Virus record (IMG/VR): IMGVR_UViG_2718218135_000001
Coordinates: 32,001 to 96,000 of that record
Length of the DNA stretch: 64,000 nucleotides
Source: a virus
Lineage: Duplodnaviria; Heunggongvirae; Uroviricota; Caudoviricetes
Direction: 5' to 3' (one strand)
The stretch's first letter is position 1. Each line of letters opens with the position of its first letter. Positions 1 through 49,361 of this stretch are shown here, piece by piece. The position numbers and the translations under genes are program-made. The notes beneath the pieces are model-generated. The model had not been told where the DNA came from. It made no database searches and saw nothing but the letters and a program-made list of their open reading frames with translations.

Positions 1-72
1 AAAAACGACTCGTGATACCACCCAAAAACAGACACGCTCAGAAGCGCTCCCGTTGCGTTATATTGGACATCT

Positions 73-86
73 AAACAAGTTGTTTT
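73..86. promoter_or_regulatory. AAACAA-N2-TTGTTT operator-like palindrome (copy 1)
   Basis: aaacaagttgtttt; same palindrome recurs at least 10 times in the window; here it precedes the A+C-rich non-coding tract. Confidence 0.45.
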
Positions 87-799
87 CAGACACAAGAAAA
101 CAAGCTAACCACACCCACAGGAAACCCAGAGACGCCATTACCCACATTCCCAAAAACAACCAACCTCTTTATGGCAGGCTACTGAAAAGACCCACCTCTT
201 CTTCCCAGGCTACCGGACAACCAACCTAACTTTCACAGGCAACTCGAAACATTCATACATGCGATACCCACTACACGCCATTCCCCAAACAGCGAATAAA
301 CACCAGAACCACTGAAACTCTAACGAAGCCTGTTACCGCAAGGACTCCCTCAATCCCCAAAGACACGAAACAGAACATTCGCGGGGAAACGCCATTACTC
401 AATACACAAATAACCACAAAAGCCTTTCACGCTCTCAAGACAAACAACTCAAATACAATAACGAAAGGAATCGCCCACCTGCCATTACTCCATACACAGA
501 GAAGAACAATCACCAAAACAACGAGAACAACCCTGACGAAAACACAGAGAAGAACCACCTCAAGAAGAACGAAACCACATATGCCGGTAGAAAGAACAAA
601 CCACCCATTTCACCCACAGGAATAGTCGCCGTATTGAGCGTTATCAGAGAGAAGGTTTATGCCCACATAAGAGAGAAAATTCGTGGGAGGTATAAGTGGG
701 AAGGGAAGGAGGGGTATCGCCACTTTCTTCGTATAAATTCAAGCCATAGTTTTCATCCCCCGTAACGTCCCTATCCACCCCTTCGGTCAGCCTTCGGGC

Positions 800-3032: not shown

Positions 3033-3041
3033 ATGCCCGAT

Positions 3042-3054
3042 AACAATTTGTTTT
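3042..3054. promoter_or_regulatory. AAACAA-N2-TTGTTT operator-like palindrome (half-degenerate)
   Basis: aacaatttgtttt upstream of gene 3113. Confidence 0.4.
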
Positions 3055-3662: not shown

Positions 3663-3803
3663 AAATGACCATCCTGTTTCCCGCAGGCTAAAAACACCAA
3701 CCTCTTACCTCCAGGCAACCGACAAACCCACCTGTTCCCGTCCGGCTACCGCAACTTTCCACTTTGACGCCTTATTCGTACAACGATAATTAACACCAAC
3801 AAG

Positions 3804-3816
3804 AAAACAATTTGTT
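3804..3816. promoter_or_regulatory. AAACAA-N2-TTGTTT operator-like palindrome
   Basis: aaaacaatttgtt, 22 bp upstream of ATG 3838; flanking acaccaacaag element is shared with the 1260 copy. Confidence 0.5.
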
Positions 3817-3837
3817 ATTTACGATAAGGAATTAATC

Positions 3838-13647: not shown

Positions 13648-13662
13648 AAAACAAATTGGTTA
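13648..13662. promoter_or_regulatory. degenerate AAACAA box
   Basis: aaaacaaattggtta. Confidence 0.35.
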
Positions 13663-13673
13663 GGCACAGAATT

Positions 13674-13687
13674 AAACAAGTTGTTTA
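13674..13687. promoter_or_regulatory. AAACAA-N2-TTGTTT operator-like palindrome
   Basis: aaacaagttgttta, 40 bp upstream of the TerS start, followed by hairpin gagcgca-agga-tgcgctc. Confidence 0.5.
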
Positions 13688-30835: not shown

Positions 30836-33800
30836 ATGGAACAGTTCAAGAAGAAAAAGTTACCGCTGTTTATTGCCGGTGCGGGTGGTAAAAAAAGTAG
30901 CAAAAGCTCCAGCCGTACACCGGTTGAAGCCGACGATACCGTAAATTCTCGTGCAATGGCCGCTATCCTCGATCTTCTTGGGGAAGGGGTAATTGGCGGC
31001 TTAGTAAATGGCGCAAGATCTATTTTTATCGACGATCTGCCGATTGTAAATGAAGACGGTTCCTCCAACTTCAGCGGAATCACATGGGATTTTCGCGACG
31101 GTTCACAAGACCAGACTCCAATGTCTGGCTTTGATTTCGTTGAAACGCCTAAATCCGTCAATATCCAGTTAAAAAAAACGCATTATGTAACGGTTTCAAT
31201 CGATAACGATGAAGCTGATCGGGTTCGTGTCATCATGAAGTTTCCTTCTTTGCGAAGCATAGATAAAAAAACTGGTGACACGAACGGTACGACTGTTGAG
31301 TACAAGTTCCAGATAGCAAATGGCGACTCAACATTTGTAGATGTGGTCGCGGAAGGTGAAAAAAGCGTTGGCATTAAGCTAACAGCAAAGAAGACCGGCG
31401 TTTATTACCGTAGCTATGAGCTGAAGCTGCCTAAGCCTGGACGAGCATACAAGGTTCGTGTAGTCCGTATTACCGATGATAACAGTAGCCAGTATCTCTA
31501 TAACGATACATGGGTGGATTCAATCGGGGAAATTGTCGATACACCGATGAACTATCCAAACTCTGTTTTGGTTGGATTGAAGGTAAACTCTGAGCAATTC
31601 GGCAGCACCATGCCATCTCGCTCTTATCTGGTGCGTGGCCTAAAAATTCGAGTACCTTCAAACTATAACGAGTCCAGTAACACTTACGCTGGGGTATGGG
31701 ATGGCACTTTTAAGCTGTTGTCTTCTTCGAACCCCGCGTGGATTCTCTTTGATTTGCTGACCAATGCTCGATATGGCCTTGGTCAGTATGTGTCGGAATC
31801 TATGATTGACCTTGGCCAGTTGTACCAGATTGGTCGATATTGTGACGAAGAGGTCGATGATGGCTTTGGTGGCAAAGAGAAACGCTTTGCAATCAATACG
31901 CAGATCACCAGTCGACAGGACGCATACCGGCTAATTCAGGATATTGCTGGAGCATTCCGCGGCATGGTGTTTTGGGCTGGTGGGATGGTTAACATCATGC
32001 AGGATAGCCCATCAGATCCGGTAATGATGTTTACCAACTCTAACGTCAAAGATGGATTGTTTACCTATAAAGGTTCTGCGCGTAAAGATCGCCCATCCGT
32101 TGCGCTCGTAACCTACAACAACAAGGAGGACGGTTATAAGCAAAACATCGAGTACGTTGAAGATCAGGACGCAATGCGCCGTTATGGTGAGCGTAAGACA
32201 GAAGTCGTAGCATTTGGCTGTACAAGCCGAGGGCAGGCTCACCGAGTTGGTTTGTGGCTTTTGTATACCGCCAGAATGGAGTCGGATGTAATTACATTTA
32301 CTGCCGGCTTAGACGCGTCATTTTTGATGCCTGGTGAAACCGTTCTGATTCAGAACAAATATCGCGCAGGCAAACGTAACTCAGGTCGAATTGTGGCGTT
32401 TACCAAAAACAGCGTCACACTCGATGCGCCTGTGTCGTTAGCCAAAGGCGGCTGCTTTATTCGAATACTGAATCAGGAAGGCAAAATCGTTGAACGCGAT
32501 GCTCTTGAAACTGGCGAAAATATAACAAAAGTTACGTTTTCAAAAGCCCTGTCGTCAGCGGAAACGCCTGTTTTGAACGGTGTCTGGACAATTACAGAAC
32601 CAGATCTCGAACCTATGCGCGTTCGCATCGTTAACATCGCTCAGGGGGAAACGTCGGGTAGCTTTGACATCACCGCTGTTGAAAACAATCCGTCTAAATA
32701 TGAGGCGATCGACAATGGTGCAACGCTTATCCCGCAGAATACGACGGTATTGGACCCGACTTACTCCAAGCCGTCTAATTTGCAAATCACTGAAGGGACT
32801 TATCTCTCAAGCCCGGGCAACCTGTCAGTAAAACTGACTGCAACATGGGAAGGGAAATCTCCAGAGTATTGGATCAGTTGGCGACGTTCTGATGCAAACA
32901 ATGTATCGAACTGGCAATCGACGCGTGTAACCGAAGAGCAATACGAAATCGTTAATGTCGCGGAGAATGGACGCTACGACTTCCAACTGTATGCGGTTTC
33001 ATTCAACGGTAAAAAAACAGAAATTATCAGCACCGTCTACAAAGTTCAGGGGACGATGACGCCGCCGGATGCACCGACTGCACTGACGGCCGTGGGCGAC
33101 TACCGCAACGTGATTCTGAATTGGGTTAACCCGGACTCAATCGACCTCGATCACATCAACGTGTATGCATCCCGGACCAACAACCTGGACACTGCAAAAC
33201 TAATTGCCGAAGCAGCCAGTACCACCTTTACGCACGCAGGTCTTGGAGATAGCGAAACTTGGTTCTATTGGGTTCGTGCAGCAAACAAACGCGGAATGTT
33301 GAGCCAGCCGAACTCCAATTTGGGCACTGAGGCGATGACGAAAGATGTTCTGTCTTTCCTGACCGGGAAGATCACTTCTTCGGAATTGGGGCAGGAACTG
33401 CTTGAGGAAATCGACACCAAAGCCTCGCAGGAAGCCGTCGACGCAATCAACAAGCAGATGGAAGAAAGCCTGAAAAGCCTTGATGACAAATTTACTGAGA
33501 CCGATCAACGGATTGAAGAAGCCCAAAACGTTCTTAGAACGGAAGTTTCTAATACTGCCAGCAAGGTGGAAGAGGCTCTTAAGGAGGTTGAAAACTCAAA
33601 TGCCGCATTAATTCAGTTGAAGGAAACTGTTTCAGAGCAGGACAAGGTCGTTGCTGGAGCGGTTGAGGCCGCGAATGCAGCACTGGACAATTCATCGGCT
33701 TTAGTTGCGGAGGAACGTGAGGCACGAGTCGAAGGCGACTTGGCGAACGCGAAAGAAATCGAGGCAATGAAGTCAACTGTAGATAGCAGTTTGGCCACCA

Positions 33801-38614: not shown

Positions 38615-39195
38615 TGGCATTCAGAATGAGTGAACAACCACGGACCATAAAAATTTATAATCTGCTGTCCGGAACTAATGAATTTATTGGTGAAGGTGAT
38701 GCATATATTCCGCCTCATACAGGTCTGCCAGCAAACAGTACCGATATTGCACCGCCAGATATTCCGGCAGGCTTCGTGGCTGTTTTCAACAGTGATGAGG
38801 CATCGTGGCATCTCGTTGAAGATCATCGGGGAAAAACCGTCTATGACGTGGCTTCCGGCGACGCGTTATTTATTTCTGAACTCGGTCCGTTACCGGAAAA
38901 TGTTACCTGGTTATCACCGGATGGGGAATATCAGAAGTGGGACGGCACATCCTGGGAGAAGGATGAGGAAACAGAAAAATTGTTTCAGGTACGGGAAGCG
39001 GAAGAAACAAAAAAAAGTCTGATGCAGGTAGCCAGCGAGCACATTGCGCCACTTCAGGATGCTGTAGATTTGGAGATTGCAACGGAGGAAGAAGCATCGT
39101 TGCTGACTGCATGGAAGAAGTATAGAGTTTTATTGAACCGCATTGACACATCAACGGCACCGGATATTGACTGGCCAACAATACCAGCAGAGTAA
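38614..39195 (+). CDS. tail fibre assembly protein (Tfa-like)
   Basis: 193 aa directly after fibre gene, TAATG overlap. Confidence 0.75.
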
Positions 39196-41849: not shown

Positions 41850-41863
41850 AAAACAAGTTGTTT
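41850..41863. promoter_or_regulatory. AAACAA-N2-TTGTTT operator-like palindrome
   Basis: aaaacaagttgttt, 36 bp upstream of parA-like ATG. Confidence 0.5.
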
Positions 41864-41898
41864 CATACGACAATAATTCACGCAAAGGAAACTCACCA

Positions 41899-42564
41899 AT
41901 GACCAAGATCATTGTGGTTGGCGGCACAAAAGGCGGCCCAGGCAAATCTACCGTTGCCCAGCAAATTGCGGTATGTCTCAAAGTTAAAAAGAAAAAGAAG
42001 GTTCACGTCACCGATATCGATATCCAGCGCACCACGACCAGCTGGTGTGAAGACCGTCGCCAGAACGAAGATCTTGAACTGATCCCGTTCGCTTATGTGC
42101 AGGACGACATCGTCAAACATCTTAAATCGCTTCAGGGGCGAACTGATTATGTAGTGGTAGATGCTGGTGGCTTTGACTCCGAAATTCAGCGTCTGGCGAT
42201 GCTTATGGCTGATGTAATCATCATCCCGCTGCGCCCTAAACGTCGTGATTTGAAATCTCTGCGTGATATCGACCCGATTATCGACAACGTTCGCAATGTG
42301 AACGAGAAAGTTAAGATCCGCGCGGTAATAAACCAGTGTCCGTCATTGCCTTCCCAGGTATCACGTATTCTGGCCGCGAAGGAAATTGTCGAAACTTTCG
42401 GCATCGAGGCTGCGCCGGTCAATCTGTACAACCGTAACGTTTATGACGATGCGGAAGAGGCAGGTCGTTCTATCTTTGAAATGACTGGCGCTGAACGCGA
42501 TAAGAAGGCAGAAGCCGAGTTCGAAGAGTTTGTAGATTACATCTTGAGTCTGGAGGAAGAATAA
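41899..42564 (+). CDS. parA: ParA-family partition ATPase (small, type Ib-like)
   Basis: deviant Walker A GGTKGGPGKST; 221 aa. Confidence 0.85.
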   Translation: MTKIIVVGGTKGGPGKSTVAQQIAVCLKVKKKKKVHVTDIDIQRTTTSWCEDRRQNEDLELIPFAYVQDDIVKHLKSLQGRTDYVVVDAGGFDSEIQRLAMLMADVIIIPLRPKRRDLKSLRDIDPIIDNVRNVNEKVKIRAVINQCPSLPSQVSRILAAKEIVETFGIEAAPVNLYNRNVYDDAEEAGRSIFEMTGAERDKKAEAEFEEFVDYILSLEEE

Positions 42565-42975: not shown

Positions 42976-43743
42976 TTATGCCGCGCTAACACTATGTTCA
43001 TTCCTAACCACCCCAACCTTCACAAAAGGGCTGCCGTAGCTTGGTGGCTTCTTGATTAATTTGCCTACATACAGTTTTCTAATATGCTCATCGGCTATTC
43101 TGCCAACAAATTCATAACGTTTTGTGTCGGGGCCAAGAGCTATATCCCTTGTAAAGTACTGCTGAGAACCGGCTTTGACCCAGCATTCAATCTGATAAAC
43201 TTCCATTATCAGGCCCCCATATGTAGCGTAGGCATATTTGAGATTCTCGTCTCTTGGAACCTTTGCCCATACGCCACGCGTAGCTTCATATAATGCCAGA
43301 GCGGACATTCCTGACTTGTAGGTGCTGTTTAGCAGGAAGGCAAGACCGGCGTGCTCAGGAGCAATTTCAGTTTCCTCTTGCAGCACTAAGTGATGGTAGG
43401 CGTCCAGTGATATTCTGCCCATCATGGAACCACTTCCTCGTACCTTATTCGTAAGCTCTCCGACACCCATAAGGTCGATGCATGTCGCCTCAACAAGTTT
43501 GGCTGTGGTTTCATCCATACCATGACGAAGAATATCTATGCCTAATTTTTTATTAGCCAAAAGTTCTTTGATCCGCATGGATTTGGGAGAGTCATCGGGA
43601 TACTTGATGTGATCGAGACAACGAGTCGATTTGCCTTTTCCTATGTAAAACGGTCTTTTCATCTTGTCTTCTGTATCATAGAGACAGTAAACATAGTATT
43701 TAGCCTTATCCAATGATCTCGCGTATACCGATAAATCGTCCAT
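42976..43743 (-). CDS. GIY-YIG nuclease-domain protein
   Basis: N-terminal YYVYCLYD ... RPFYIGKGKSTRCLDH. Confidence 0.6.
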   Translation of the reverse strand: MDDLSVYARSLDKAKYYVYCLYDTEDKMKRPFYIGKGKSTRCLDHIKYPDDSPKSMRIKELLANKKLGIDILRHGMDETTAKLVEATCIDLMGVGELTNKVRGSGSMMGRISLDAYHHLVLQEETEIAPEHAGLAFLLNSTYKSGMSALALYEATRGVWAKVPRDENLKYAYATYGGLIMEVYQIECWVKAGSQQYFTRDIALGPDTKRYEFVGRIADEHIRKLYVGKLIKKPPSYGSPFVKVGVVRNEHSVSAA

Positions 43744-43886
43744 TATTGCATCTCTTAGCTACTGACTAATGCGTTCTATTTTACACATAAGTTTTTAATC
43801 AATTTTACAGGCTCAAAGTGTAGAGCTTCTGGGTGTCTAAGACGACAAGTTATGCCTGTTTCTGTATATAAATAATAAGTAACTTA

Positions 43887-43908
43887 TTAAATATATACGG
43901 AAGCAGGT
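43887..43908. repeat. third copy of the 22-bp element ttaaatatatacggaagcaggt
   Basis: exact match to one arm of the 13.55-kb inverted repeat. Confidence 0.85.
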
Positions 43909-43990
43909 CTTTTAAAAGACACCCACCAGAACAACTCCCTTCCGTTTCCACTTCCCAAAAATATCTCCAGTCGCTATGATTCGCTCACTT

Positions 43991-44012
43991 AGATAAGTAA
44001 GTACATACCTAT
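43991..44012. promoter_or_regulatory. TAAGTA-N-TACTTA palindromic box
   Basis: agataagtaagtacatacctat upstream of gene 44026. Confidence 0.45.
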
Positions 44013-44025
44013 TAAAGGGAATCAT

Positions 44026-44751
44026 GTGAGCCAGATCTTCTTCAACACTATCGACAATGACCAGTACGATTTCATGACAGAGTGGAATACCGCTGTTATG
44101 GACAAGTGGGTCGCTGAAAACATTGGTTTGTCGCGCTGTAAAGACGAGGCTGAACTCTTCGAGACGAAGTGGTTTGATTACCGCGACATGCACCCACTTA
44201 TGGCCACATGCCTTTTCACTGAGGCATACAAGCGCCAGTACTCATACATCATGCTGTCGCATGGTCGTGAACACTATGAGACGGCTCCATTCACAACCGG
44301 TCTGAAGCGTGTGCCATATCAGGAGTTGTCGACGGTCAACAAAACGTCGCTCTGGAAAGCACGCCAGTTTGCTGACCGCTATTGCTGCTCATACGACTAC
44401 TTTATCTCCACCGTTCTTTCCGCAGCTGCACGACGGCTGTGGGACAAATTACCGCGCCCCCAGCATCTCTGGCAGCCCGAGTTGATCGAGATATTCGAAG
44501 AGAAGTTAGCCAAACGCGCTGTAACCCGTCTGGATGACTCTCTGGTGAGTTTTAAGCATCTTGGAGACATGCAGCGTGACCCGATTCAGGAACGCTATTT
44601 TGAGTGGATTCTGGAGCGTCTGCGTGGCATTACCCGAGATAAACGCATCCGTATCATCTTCTCCGCTGTCTGGTTGATGGAAATCGTGCCTGAGCGTGTG
44701 ATTTACGCGCACTTCCCGGAAGAACTGGAAGAAGCACGGCGATTCTGTTGA
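44026..44751 (+). CDS. hypothetical protein (241 aa), possible replication accessory
   Basis: GTG start; directly upstream of helicase. Confidence 0.45.
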   Translation: MSQIFFNTIDNDQYDFMTEWNTAVMDKWVAENIGLSRCKDEAELFETKWFDYRDMHPLMATCLFTEAYKRQYSYIMLSHGREHYETAPFTTGLKRVPYQELSTVNKTSLWKARQFADRYCCSYDYFISTVLSAAARRLWDKLPRPQHLWQPELIEIFEEKLAKRAVTRLDDSLVSFKHLGDMQRDPIQERYFEWILERLRGITRDKRIRIIFSAVWLMEIVPERVIYAHFPEELEEARRFC

Positions 44752-44777
44752 TCCCCTATCTGGCTTTTTTAGTATTA

Positions 44778-44793
44778 GAAAACAAATTGTTTA
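44778..44793. promoter_or_regulatory. AAACAA-N2-TTGTTT operator-like palindrome
   Basis: gaaaacaaattgttta, 19 bp upstream of helicase ATG. Confidence 0.5.
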
Positions 44794-44811
44794 AGCACCA
44801 AAGGAAAGCAC

Positions 44812-46152
44812 ATGACCGAACTTTGCCACACAGGACGAGGGTTGTCTGAAGAGTTCGACGACGACTTCCAGAATCGACTCGCAGCCTACTTCTGTCGCGA
44901 CCATGAATTTCTGACTCGCGCCGGTGATCTGGTTGCGCCAAACCAGTTCTCCAATGCGGCCAACGCCATTCTGGTGAACATGGTGTCGGGCTACTATAGA
45001 ATGTATAAGAGCGCACCATCATCATCAGCCATCCTCGACATGCTCAAACGCGCCAAACGCGATAAGACGATCCGCGAAGAGCTGTTCCCTGACGTTGTTG
45101 AGGCGTTTAAGCGCATTCTCGCTGAGAAGCTGTCAGATACGGCGTACATGGTCGACCAGGTCGCGACATTTGCTAAAAGCGTAGCGTTCGACGATGCGCT
45201 AATTAAAGCGGCTGAGATGAAAGAGAAGGGCGATTTCCAGGGCGCGATGGCAATCATGGCTAAGGTCCAGCAAATTGGCTCTAACGAAGCGACCGGCATT
45301 TACGATTACTTCGCAGAATCAGCGGAGCGTTACAAGGCCCGTGAGTACGAAGCGTCCGACGATTACGTGCCAAACAGCATCACTACCGGCCTCCCGCTGC
45401 TCGACAAACTGCTTTACCAGAAAGGCTGGGCAAAGCGTGAAATGGTGCTGTTTATGGGCTTCGCTAAGTCTGGTAAATCGACGGCGATGGGGGAGTTTTC
45501 CATCAACGCCACGCTTGCCGGTTACAACGTCCTGTATCTGTCGCTGGAAGTTCACACCTCCATTCTGTCAGATCGCTTTGACGCCCGTCTGTCTGAGACC
45601 GAAATGTCCAGGCTGGTGGAACGTCGCGATGACGTCCATCGCAAACTGGCGGAGCTGGGTGCGACGAAAGGCGTGGGAAGTTTGTGGATTGTTGAACGAC
45701 CGTCCGGAAGCATGTCGCCCGCAGATCTGGACCGTATGTTGGGCAGCATGAAAGCCAACGGTATGGTCCCCGATATGGTTGTGGTCGACTACGCTGACCT
45801 GATGCGTGCCAGCTACGACCTCCGCGACGACCGCGCTAACATTCGCAGCATCTACACTGACCTGCGTGCGCTGTACGACAAACACAACGTTGCCGGCATC
45901 ACGGCATCGCAGACTAACAGAGAAGGTGGCGCTTCTGAGGTGGCTACAATGATGCACGCAGCGGACAACATCGAGAAGGTGCGTATCGCTGATCTCGTTA
46001 TCACTATCAACAAAACGGAAGAAGAAGAAGCGAAAGGCGAAGCGCGTCTTTACTTCGCTGGTTCACGTAACCAGAAAGGCGGCGTAAGCATCCGCGTTAA
46101 GCAGAACCTCGAACAAATGCGATTCATCGAACGCATTATGGACGTCATCTAA
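44812..46152 (+). CDS. DnaB-like replicative helicase
   Basis: Walker A GFAKSGKST in a RecA-like C-terminal domain. Confidence 0.7.
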   Translation: MTELCHTGRGLSEEFDDDFQNRLAAYFCRDHEFLTRAGDLVAPNQFSNAANAILVNMVSGYYRMYKSAPSSSAILDMLKRAKRDKTIREELFPDVVEAFKRILAEKLSDTAYMVDQVATFAKSVAFDDALIKAAEMKEKGDFQGAMAIMAKVQQIGSNEATGIYDYFAESAERYKAREYEASDDYVPNSITTGLPLLDKLLYQKGWAKREMVLFMGFAKSGKSTAMGEFSINATLAGYNVLYLSLEVHTSILSDRFDARLSETEMSRLVERRDDVHRKLAELGATKGVGSLWIVERPSGSMSPADLDRMLGSMKANGMVPDMVVVDYADLMRASYDLRDDRANIRSIYTDLRALYDKHNVAGITASQTNREGGASEVATMMHAADNIEKVRIADLVITINKTEEEEAKGEARLYFAGSRNQKGGVSIRVKQNLEQMRFIERIMDVI

Positions 46153-46239
46153 AAAAGAAGGCGTGGGGAAACACTCTCCACGCCTGTCTCCAGAAGAGAA
46201 CAAATTTCTCTTTTGCCAAAACCACAAAAGAAAAAACAC

Positions 46240-47424
46240 ATGAGCCTTTATGGTATTCAAATACCGAGGCTTATCAAGATATTACCTGCAAAAAACAGGG
46301 GTAAGAACGTGAGCGACTTGAAAGAATTACTGACCGAGCTGGATTTTGAGCAATGGCTCGATATGGAAGGGATCATCTACCGTCGTGGTGGAGTCAGTAC
46401 TCGCGGACGAGAGGTCAACATTAAAGAGTGTCCGGTATGCGGCAGCTCAAACTGGAAGGTTTATTTCAACCTGACCAGTGGTGTCGGCAAATGCTTTGCA
46501 GGTGATCATCCCGAAGAGATTCAGTTCAACAAGCTGGTCTTCCTAAAGCATTACAGCGGCAAATCTCGTCGCGATTTTGAAGAGTACGTCCAGAACGCGC
46601 TGATCTCACAAGGATGGGCACCGAAGAAGGAAGAGATCGTACTGGCCAGCAAGGTTGAACTGGAAGGACCGGTAGCTCTCCCGCGCCATTACGAACTCCC
46701 CATTGACGGTCGTCTTCCTGATTATCTGGTGGAGCGCCAGATTTCCCCGGAGCTGGCCAAATACTTTGATCTGCGTTACTGCGTCGAAGGCAAGCACGCA
46801 TACGTCGATCCGTACACAGACCAGGTCAAAGGACAGGTATTCGATATGCGAATACTGATACCGGTTTACGATCTGGATGGCGTGATGAAGACCTTCCAGG
46901 GTCGTGACATTACCGGTGCAGCAGAACGCCGGTATCTGTTCCCCATGCAGCTGCCAGCATCGGGTAAATTTCTCTACAACGGCCACAATGCAGTCGGCAA
47001 ACAGACTGTAGTTGTCTGTGAGGGGGCGTTCGATGTTATGGGGGTTAAACGAGCTATTTTTGATGAAGAAACATTACGCGATTACGTGGAACCGATAGGA
47101 ACGTTCGGGATGCATCTATCTGGTAACACCACTCAGGATGCAGAAGATCAGTTGGGCGCGTTCCTGACGCTCAAGGCGCGTGGATTACGTAATGTGATTA
47201 TGATGTGGGATAGTGAAAAGCAAGCTATACGCAACACGATGGCCGCAGCCAGGCGACTGACCAGTATCGGTCTTAATGTCAAAGTAGCGTGTTTGGGCGA
47301 GGAAGGACTCGATCCCGGCGATGCGACACCGGGGCAGATTATCAAAGCCTACTATTGCGCAAAACCTTATTCACGACAGCTTGAACTTTTAAGCAAGGTA
47401 AAAGGCATAGCTGCATTAGTTTGA
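46240..47424 (+). CDS. DNA primase (zinc-binding plus TOPRIM)
   Basis: CPVCGSSNW...C zinc motif, TOPRIM-like VVVCEGAFDV; start uncertain. Confidence 0.7.
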   Translation: MSLYGIQIPRLIKILPAKNRGKNVSDLKELLTELDFEQWLDMEGIIYRRGGVSTRGREVNIKECPVCGSSNWKVYFNLTSGVGKCFAGDHPEEIQFNKLVFLKHYSGKSRRDFEEYVQNALISQGWAPKKEEIVLASKVELEGPVALPRHYELPIDGRLPDYLVERQISPELAKYFDLRYCVEGKHAYVDPYTDQVKGQVFDMRILIPVYDLDGVMKTFQGRDITGAAERRYLFPMQLPASGKFLYNGHNAVGKQTVVVCEGAFDVMGVKRAIFDEETLRDYVEPIGTFGMHLSGNTTQDAEDQLGAFLTLKARGLRNVIMMWDSEKQAIRNTMAAARRLTSIGLNVKVACLGEEGLDPGDATPGQIIKAYYCAKPYSRQLELLSKVKGIAALV

Positions 47425-47557: not shown

Positions 47558-47935
47558 CTACGCCGTACCATACAATCTACGTAACGTGGCAACGACAGTA
47601 GATACGGATACCTCTCCGGTCGCAGCCCCCACAGTAAGCTCTGCCAGTTCTGGTGAATCATATACCTGCACACCGTTACGGCGCAGAAATAACAACGCAC
47701 TGTTTAGCGCGGTACGCTTATTGGCATCATTGAATATATGCCCTCTCGCAGTAGCCACCAGGTAAGTTGCGGAGACTTCGAAAAGGTCGGTAATCTCTTC
47801 ATATGCAACTCTGGCCTGGACTCTCCCGATAATAGCCTCAGCTCTTCCCGAATCTGACATGCCTGGCAGGCCGCCGTAGCGGCTTATATTCGCATCATGA
47901 ATTGCAGTAAGCTCTTCCGGTGATATATGCCTCAT
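47558..47935 (-). CDS. doc: Doc toxin (Fic family)
   Basis: near-identical to phage P1 Doc as recalled; Fic-type motif [11 protein letters not shown]. Confidence 0.9.
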
Positions 47936-48156
47936 TATCGGTTAACCAGTTTCTTATTGGTGGTGTCCAGAGTGTCAAACAGGGATGCGAATTCAGCATC
48001 CAGCGCCGCTTTTTTGTAGGCTTCGAAAGTGGCCTTGCTGACAATTACAGCTGGCTCACGGCCTCTACGGGTGATTTCAACCTCTTCTCCGGCTTCAACA
48101 TTGTTGAGCACTTCGGTAAGATTGCTGCGTGCGGTACGGAAGTTAATAGATTGCAT
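47935..48156 (-). CDS. phd: Phd antitoxin
   Basis: matches P1 Phd as recalled; stop overlaps doc start. Confidence 0.9.
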
Positions 48157-48340
48157 AAACATCTCGTGTACTCAATATGTGTACGCAATTATAGAGCTTA
48201 ATTGCCCACTACTCCATCATTTTATCCAGTGCGCCTTATACCTCCACTCTGAAGGACGGGGTTTTAGGGCGCTCTGGATAAAAACACACGTACTTTCTCT
48301 CCGAAAGTACGTGAAAAGTAGCGACTAACCACCATGCTCA

Positions 48341-49351
48341 TTAGTCGTAGGATACGGCAAATATCGCCTGGCCTTGAACTTCCCCAGGCTGTAAAGCTTC
48401 CTCTTTCACGCGAACGTATTTTGCGGTAATCGGGAAGATGTACTGTTCCTGAATAGCCGCCATTTTAGGTAATCTGTTCATCAGGGTATCGCCCAGCTTT
48501 AACGGTGTCGTTGCATTACCATTGTAAATCTGGAACCCTACACCCTTAGCACCATCGGACAATGTATTTTTCAATATTGTTCCACTATCATCCCACACAC
48601 CACGCTCAACTTTAAAAGTCACTGGATTAGTCGTGACGTTATAGACACTATCGCAATTTAGGACCAGATCTACAGAACCTGATTTTGAGTTATTGGCAGA
48701 TAGCATCTCACTTATCGTTGTTTCTGGTATTCTTATTTCGTAAGTCGGTTGCGAGAAACGACAGGTTGTGGGTTTGTGTTTAACAGTAATGGTTAGTTTT
48801 TGTTCGTAAGCATCGCCTTTATTTAACAACCCCAATAAATTGCACAATATCCATGAAAAAATATTTGAACTGCATTGATTATCAGATAAAAAGTTACCCG
48901 CTGGCTTTTTTAATTCGAATGAATCCCCCTCTACCGCTTCACCATGATCACTTCTATATGTAGTTGGTGGTATATATGAGGCCGTTAACTTCAGTTGTTT
49001 ATTATTAATGGTATCAGCAACAGAATAGGTTTTAGGCGACAGAAGCGAACCACTCGTTTCTACAGGAAATCCATCAGCCTCAAGCTTTAATTTAATAAAA
49101 ATAGACTTATTGCTGGAGCCATCTTTCATTTCAACAATATAGTCATCTAACGTTGTTGCAAAATACATCTTATCCCCCCTCGAGTTACATTCATAAGATC
49201 CTTGCAGGTTGGGATTAAAACTTACTATTGTTGAATCCCTTGTTAAGTCCAGTGTAATTGGTTGAGTTGCTGTCCAAGTTCCCTTAGGGGTACATTTCGC
49301 CTGCCCAAAAAATGGAATAATCAACAAAAACAAAAACCAATATTTCTTCAT
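48341..49351 (-). CDS. fimbrial adhesin / minor subunit
   Basis: signal peptide MKKYWFLFLLIIPFFGQA; last gene of chaperone-usher operon. Confidence 0.6.
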   Translation of the reverse strand: MKKYWFLFLLIIPFFGQAKCTPKGTWTATQPITLDLTRDSTIVSFNPNLQGSYECNSRGDKMYFATTLDDYIVEMKDGSSNKSIFIKLKLEADGFPVETSGSLLSPKTYSVADTINNKQLKLTASYIPPTTYRSDHGEAVEGDSFELKKPAGNFLSDNQCSSNIFSWILCNLLGLLNKGDAYEQKLTITVKHKPTTCRFSQPTYEIRIPETTISEMLSANNSKSGSVDLVLNCDSVYNVTTNPVTFKVERGVWDDSGTILKNTLSDGAKGVGFQIYNGNATTPLKLGDTLMNRLPKMAAIQEQYIFPITAKYVRVKEEALQPGEVQGQAIFAVSYD

Positions 49352-49361
49352 AAAAAATCCT

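Follow-up and report, generated by a model that had tools for sequence, protein, structure and literature searches.

The stretch of DNA analysed here, hereafter the window, comprises 64,000 nucleotides (nt), positions 32,001 to 96,000, of the IMG/VR virus record IMGVR_UViG_2718218135_000001 (Caudoviricetes), and our subject is a set of three consecutive plus-strand open reading frames (ORFs) within it: 44026-44751, which starts with GTG and encodes a protein of 241 amino acids (aa), 44812-46152 (446 aa), and 46213-47424 (403 aa as the longest ORF). An earlier, sequence-only reading had described these genes as a self-contained replication module made up of an unassigned 241-aa protein, a DnaB-like helicase and a primase. 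The three consecutive genes are confirmed, with the same coding sequences annotated in a plasmid that is 99.7% identical. A 3.8-kilobase (kb) query over the three genes matched 2035 plasmid records by megablast, the top one being this plasmid, E. coli pYUXYEH3934-1 (99.7% identity over 100% of the query), and Salmonella phage SSU5 matched the module at 91.2% identity over 92% of the query; the E. coli phage-plasmid Cyrano is about 83% identical to the module DNA. The counterparts in these two elements are SSU5_038-040 and CYRAN_31-33, annotated as hypothetical protein, DnaB-like helicase and primase, and the gene order of the window matches the annotated order in the near-identical plasmid, SSU5 and Cyrano. 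Because of the plasmid match and the SSU5 and Cyrano counterparts, we assign the window by sequence to an SSU5/pHCM2-type phage-plasmid from E. coli, a group known already from the literature (PMC7969092). The helicase and primase are ordinary genes of this known group, annotated as such before; literature searches returned no functional work on any of the three genes.

The second gene (44812-46152, plus strand) encodes what its sequence identifies as a replicative helicase of the DnaB family, T4 gp41 type, presumably hexameric. Its product matches Pfam DnaB_C (PF03796; 6.4e-13, 49.1 bits against a cut-off of 27) and phrog_19 (2.7e-87), and carries a Walker A motif, GFAKSGKS, from residue 216 and a Walker B motif, VVVDY, from residue 323. 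Its best sequence matches in the PDB, 8DTP, 8DUE and 8G0Z, are T4 gp41 entries (PMC10187150). By BLASTP, residues 23-404 align onto residues 5-392 of T4 gp41 with 20% identity over 412 columns (E 1e-13), a nearly full-length alignment that takes in the N-terminal helical domain.

The third gene (46309-47424, plus strand) encodes a protein that we class as a DnaG/T4 gp61-type primase from its profile matches and motifs. It matches phrog_47, 'DNA primase', at 7e-62 and TIGR01391 dnaG at 1e-8, while its Pfam matches are borderline (DNAG_N, 24.0 bits against a cut-off of 26; Toprim_2, 22.0 bits against 22.1). Its few PDB sequence matches include 5GUJ, a catalytic domain of DnaG, at 7e-6 and, weakly, the T4 gp61 chains at 3e-3. 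The TOPRIM motif EGAFD is present, and residues 41-67 of the 371-aa form, CPVCGSSNWKVYFNLTSGVGKCFAGDH, fit an N-terminal zinc ribbon (CPVC...C...H) by motif match only. Profiles, PDB matches and motifs thus bear out both of the earlier gene calls. The annotation of the near-identical plasmid starts the primase at a GTG equivalent to window position 46309 (372 codons including the stop); the alternatives are an in-frame ATG at 46240, which would add 23 codons, and the TTG at 46213 that opens the longest ORF. ATG 46240 is in frame with the primase in the window and in Cyrano, whereas its equivalent in SSU5 is out of frame and begins a separate 23-codon ORF that ends in an overlapping ATGA; the primase start is therefore uncertain by 23 codons. 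The DNA before the annotated start (46213-46308) is highly conserved and could encode an N-terminal extension of the primase or a leader peptide. Between helicase and primase, two hairpins can be read from the plus strand at 46160-46211: the first, 46160-46184, is GGCGTGGGGA-aacac-TCTCCACGCC, with a stem kept in SSU5 and Cyrano and sequence changes around the loop, and the second, 46195-46211, is AGAGAA-caaat-TTCTCT followed by TTTG.

The first gene (44026-44751, plus strand) is the one whose role is at issue. Its product, equivalent to SSU5_038 and CYRAN_31, matches phrog_2500, an uncharacterised phage protein family, from end to end (2.1e-110; residues 1-241 on profile positions 1-247 of 248), and a profile search of 1.84 billion representative proteins recovered 752 clusters of the family at E <= 0.001. 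Close homologues occur in Enterobacterales phage-plasmids only. The protein is all-alpha and slightly acidic, with an isoelectric point (pI) of 6.1 that is also the family median, and the residues K48, W49, D51, Y52, R113, D117, Y123 and Q188 are the invariant polar or aromatic positions of the family. It has no match in Pfam, NCBIfam or PADLOC, AAA+ and P-loop families of Pfam included, and when 81 members of the family were scanned at E <= 5, no Pfam family recurred. At the level of structure, the family profile has no match among PDB sequences at E <= 10, the fold has no clear PDB match, and a Foldseek comparison of a first model with the viral structure library BFVD returned nothing at E <= 0.001. 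Known helicase loaders fared no better as relatives: the protein does not show the two-domain fold of T4 gp59, hhalign of a 119-sequence family profile against gp59 gave a probability of 0.06%, and phmmer searches of Cyrano and the window with T4 gp59 and lambda P found nothing at E <= 10. Kinship with lambda P, considered for a resemblance between LPRPxQLY and LPSPGQF, was rejected, as hhalign gave P of 0.02 (A5) and 0.076 (A8) with probabilities of 2% and 0.7%, respectively.

The strongest evidence on the role of the 241-aa protein is its position ahead of the helicase. We surveyed 80 diverse IMG/VR viral contigs whose proteins are 25-38% identical to a distant family member used as query, and in all 78 with enough downstream sequence the next gene on the same strand is a gp41-like helicase, at a gap of -22 to 541 nt, followed nearly always by a primase. 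The same helicase linkage is found at 16 of 27 distant loci in bacterial genomes. In the viral contigs the position ahead of the helicase persists down to about 20-30% protein identity, although the genes around it differ. The sequence-only reading was right to treat the 241-aa protein as unassigned and tied to the helicase. Homologous gene blocks are present in nickie and RHEph10, both obtained as free phages, with no plasmid state reported in their records. Many contigs with a homologue are 100-120 kb long and come from Alpha-, Beta- and Gammaproteobacteria; dozens of them, at 103-120 kb, derive from Rhizobiales, Rhodobacterales, Magnetospirillum, Chitinibacter, Massilia and others, which suggests that the clade of SSU5-sized phages or phage-plasmids is much wider than its Enterobacterales group. 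In many distant phages (loci L085, L088-L091 and L128, the last being nickie gp117) a gene of about 90-115 aa stands between the homologue and the helicase; it has weak Hfq matches (TIGR02383, 2.5e-5), and SSU5-type elements have no such gene.

The family also has a long form of 320-400 aa, carried by the remaining distant genome loci (L101, L104, L105, L108, L109, L112, L116, L119 and protein P0185), which adds a C-terminal four-cysteine (Cys4) motif, C-x14-C-x2-C-x5-C, and an Arg-rich tail. The motif has no Pfam match, and its cysteine spacing presumably resembles that of WhiB-like iron-sulphur proteins. At the four loci checked (L104, L105, L108 and L116), which are alphaproteobacterial islands, a tyrosine integrase immediately precedes the long-form gene, and long-form loci sometimes carry type I restriction-modification cargo.

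How the three genes are used can be gauged indirectly from an LF82 lysogen of the related phage Cyrano. Mean normalised expression in its transcriptomes is 6.2 for CYRAN_31, the 241-aa homologue, 21.1 for the helicase and 10.6 for the primase, as against 133 for RepA and 96 for the repressor (PMC9928086, S1 Table). Since the repressor was put at about 10-fold above background (PMC9928086), background lies near 9.6, and the three module genes are near it while RepA is expressed; the plasmid is kept in this lysogen at about 5.5 copies (PMC9928086). Together with the occurrence of the gene block in the free phages nickie and RHEph10, this near-silence points to a role in lytic replication rather than in plasmid maintenance; lytic DNA synthesis following induction is the most likely use of the three genes.

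Where the plasmid state begins its replication is seen best in the closest complete relative, the IncFIB element pP59A-2, whose positions we relate to the window through an alignment of the window's right end. Its repA lies 22.7 kb past that end, about 39 kb downstream of the module, encodes a protein with Rep3 WH1 and WH2 domains, and has 23 copies of an iteron of 15-19 bp, CTCNCTAYAGTGGWT, arrayed to either side of it (the pattern matches 24 times in the locus, where 0.65 are expected, and one of these matches is distant from repA). In the window the same iteron has no match, with 0.9 expected by chance, and tblastn of the window with RepA and DnaE of the relative gave only hits at E >= 2 (RepA, E >= 3.5). 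The origin of the plasmid (lysogenic) state is thus most likely a separate Rep3-type RepA with its iterons, outside the window. Other replication genes are scattered too. In pP59A-2, dnaE, encoding the alpha subunit of DNA polymerase III (Pol III), begins about 2.2 kb past the window's right end, and the genes for a single-stranded-DNA-binding protein (SSB), UvsY and a RecA-like recombinase also lie past it; a ligase and a UvsW-like helicase are within the window, outside the module. The curated annotation of Cyrano likewise places elsewhere Pol III alpha, an epsilon-like exonuclease, a gp32-like SSB, UvsY, a RecA-like protein, SbcCD, RuvC, RNase H, ligase, a UvsW-like helicase and the RepA initiator, and names no gene as a helicase loader. 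The three genes are part of a dispersed, T4-like replication and recombination set, not a self-sufficient replicon.

The non-coding DNA around the three genes offers some indication of how they may be controlled. Nineteen nucleotides ahead of the helicase ATG lies a palindromic box, AAACAA-A-TTGTTT (AAACAAATTGTTT, 44780-44792), which the sequence-only reading had taken for an operator and which is probably one. The box is real in the sense that the 13-bp palindrome AAACAA-N-TTGTTT is strongly enriched in the window, with 11 sites or 22 strand matches against 2.4 expected, a count reached by none of 100 shuffles, and that the copy ahead of the helicase is conserved in SSU5 and Cyrano. The remaining sites are at 73-85, 1274-1286, 1652-1664, 2143-2155, 3041-3053, 3805-3817, 13649-13661, 13674-13686, 41851-41863 and 62416-62428. 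Boxes stand 18-40 nt upstream of start codons, and the genes behind them are several small early-region genes at 1.2-3.8 kb, the small terminase gene, parA and the helicase gene; the palindrome also occurs near the repressor locus. The sites have the look of operators for a single global regulator. A weak promoter-like site read from the sequence, TTGATC-16-TAGTAT (44748-44775, plus strand), overlaps the stop codon of the 241-aa gene and agrees with the consensus at 8 of 12 positions, below the scan threshold of 9. The box would occupy about +1 to +17 of a transcript started there, and such a promoter fits the Cyrano lysogen signal, in which the helicase (21.1) exceeds the 241-aa homologue (6.2).

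The 282-nt gap upstream of the 241-aa gene holds two further elements. An inverted-repeat search and RNA folding brought out an AT-rich palindrome with 26-nt arms, 1 nt between them and TCTTTT behind (43854-43908; -27.6 kcal/mol, z = -7.5), which is conserved in SSU5 and Cyrano despite different upstream genes, and also at a locus whose 241-aa protein is 64% identical (L096); it could be the relic of a long-stem terminator, a regulatory hairpin or a candidate element of a lytic origin. The leader that follows (43909-44025, plus strand) is nearly invariant in alignment with SSU5 and Cyrano and contains a pyrimidine-rich block, TCCCTTCCGTTTCCACTTCC, a Shine-Dalgarno-like AAAGGGA, and a promoter-like site, TTCCCA-17-TATGAT at 43952-43980, which is a consensus match only, from the promoter scan.

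Taken together, we think it likely that the three genes are the primosome block of a phage-plasmid, one part of its dispersed T4-like set, that the block probably serves lytic growth with the 241-aa protein as proposed loader, and that the RepA replicon is a separate matter. In such a scheme, the 241-aa gene would be transcribed from its own conserved leader, and helicase and primase from the weak internal promoter, whose start the AAACAA-N-TTGTTT box would cover. The 241-aa protein would bind the helicase and aid its assembly on SSB-coated single-stranded DNA at D-loops or R-loops, an unrelated stand-in for T4 gp59, and the primase, if T4 is a guide, would then join the helicase and complete the primosome. 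What speaks for a loader is the type of helicase: T4 gp41 depends on gp59 for efficient loading in vivo (PMC10187150). As these elements have no recognisable gp59 homologue, a role as loader or primosome-accessory factor is the best-supported guess for the protein that precedes their gp41-type helicase. The earlier suggestion of a loader or an initiator stays the most plausible one on the strength of the gene order (78/78 and 16/27) and finds no echo in homology to any known loader or initiator.

Several observations weigh against this reading. By itself, the conserved order does not tell whether the protein is a loader or rather an initiator, a regulator or a factor for host takeover. The 6-kb flanks examined around long-form genes contain neither helicase nor primase, so the 241-aa domain is not strictly dependent on the phage helicase, which leaves room for a role as initiator, as regulator or directed at the host DnaB. 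The family median pI of 6.1 compares with 9.4 for gp59 and 9.5 for lambda P, and because the family is slightly acidic where these loaders are basic, a DNA-binding mode like that of gp59 is unlikely. Finally, the lytic-only role comes from one transcriptome, that of a relative with a module about 83% identical in DNA.

It is tempting to go further and to speculate that phrog_2500 is a hitherto unrecognised class of proteins that load replicative helicases or assemble the primosome while sharing neither sequence nor fold with known loaders, a class which serves gp41-type helicases throughout a very large clade of Proteobacteria siphophages and phage-plasmids of roughly 100-120 kb, and of which a variant with Cys4 motif and basic tail was co-opted by small integrative elements. 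We offer this as a tentative proposal, somewhat short of an even chance.

But could the protein do something else altogether? It might take no direct part in replication and belong to the early gene products, as an enzyme or a factor acting in transcription or host takeover, and simply accompany the helicase operon. In its favour are the lack of homology to any replication protein, the eight invariant residues, which could belong to an active site, and the long form, which is found next to integrases and restriction-modification cargo with no helicase; the neighbours in distant phages also include PhoH and an Hfq-like gene. However, a place directly ahead of the helicase in all 78 viral contigs that could be evaluated is difficult to account for if the two have no functional link, and we regard this alternative as unlikely.

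It seems rather improbable to us that the 241-aa protein is an origin-binding initiator of lytic replication, in the manner of lambda O, P22 gp18 or SPP1 G38P, which would recognise a nearby site, for example the palindrome and pyrimidine block of 43854-44025, and would bring in the helicase from the neighbouring gene. Phages commonly encode an initiator and then a helicase, and the 170 nt upstream of the gene, with their AT-rich palindrome, are more conserved among SSU5, Cyrano and the window than the coding DNA; the Cys4 motif and basic tail of the long form could bind DNA. On the other hand, no iterons were found in or beside the 241-aa gene, nor, as a test of an initiator role, beside long-form genes, and the palindrome, which is followed by TCTTTT and stands behind a co-directional gene in SSU5 and Cyrano, may be a mere terminator.

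That the three genes are a self-contained replicon responsible for plasmid maintenance, with the repeats of 0.8 and 4.4 kb as its origin sites, is highly improbable: helicase and primase genes are present and genuine 30-nt spaced repeats do exist at 156-249 and 3665-3755 (6 copies against 0.3 expected), but the window has no polymerase or Rep initiator gene, the RepA of the relatives with its 23 iterons is a typed IncFIB replicon outside the window, a related lysogen maintains about 5.5 plasmid copies with the module near background, and the two proposed sites are at least 40 kb from the genes. The sequence-only reading had called the repeats of these two sites iteron-like. They are 40-43 kb away from the module; the loose motif they share is matched 7 times where 3.8 are expected, which is not above chance, as 11 of 100 shuffles do equally well, and Tandem Repeats Finder detected no array at either position. 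The spaced repeats are a different feature, three direct repeats in each set at a spacing of 28-31 nt with the pattern ACCNNCCT-N8-CNGGCWA, all six copies being exact, and a further match with one mismatch lies at 58222-58244; each set is upstream of a promoter-like site and a palindromic box, and nothing ties them to the three-gene module. The A+C-rich DNA of window positions 1-720 has no ORF of at least 70 aa.

Around the module, the window both follows and departs from SSU5 and Cyrano. The three genes and their order are kept, between a lysis/partition block and a ligase, but the 241-aa gene starts with ATG in the two relatives and with GTG in the window. The upstream gene of the window (42976-43743, minus strand), divergent from the 241-aa gene, differs from theirs: it encodes a protein with a LEM-3-like GIY-YIG domain that matches the PADLOC model of the single-gene anti-phage defence PD-T4-3 (1.3e-23), and since SSU5 and Cyrano have other genes there, we regard the position as a variable cargo slot. 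Relative to SSU5 and Cyrano, the window has about 7.5 kb of inserted cargo (47558-54106) after the primase and ahead of the conserved genes that follow, comprising a doc/phd toxin-antitoxin pair, a transposase of the rve family and a four-gene chaperone-usher fimbrial operon (adhesin, usher, chaperone and YehD-like subunit). Two predictions concern other parts of the window: an Rfam IS009 match of 189.6 bits within the tail-fibre-assembly gene (38957-39155, plus strand), and an ARAGORN call of a transfer RNA for lysine that overlaps the start of parA (41887-41967, minus strand), probably a false positive because Rfam gives it no support.

SSU5-type phage-plasmids, which are frequent in clinical Enterobacteriaceae, bring resistance and virulence cargo with them, and in reasoning about their typing and copy number the RepA-iteron plasmid replicon should be kept apart from the phage replisome. 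What retains interest beyond the annotated genes is an uncharacterised family with no recognisable fold that in phages always accompanies a gp41-type helicase; if it is the missing loader, it would represent a new solution to the helicase-loading problem, one that is testable in E. coli.

Finally, we would place these genes among the replication systems already known. The Rep3 RepA iteron replicon (IncFIB) is what types these phage-plasmids and very probably maintains them, but it sits about 39 kb downstream of the module, beyond a window in which its iteron has no match. The T4 primosome is another likeness: the alignment of the window's helicase with gp41 takes in almost the entire protein, the primase matches gp61 weakly, the relatives of the window carry a gp32-like SSB, UvsY, a UvsX/RecA-like protein and a UvsW-like helicase, and the job proposed for the 241-aa protein is that of gp59. 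The module differs from T4 in having no gp59 homologue, its 241-aa protein being slightly acidic and of a fold with no clear PDB match, in that the polymerase of the relatives is of the DnaE type and not T4 gp43, and in gene arrangement, gene 59 of T4 being far from genes 41 and 61. The module also resembles lambda O-P and SPP1 G38P-G39P-G40P, where a small protein that is not an ATPase is likewise encoded immediately before the helicase or the recruitment step, and where SPP1 G39P is a small loader that works through protein contacts.

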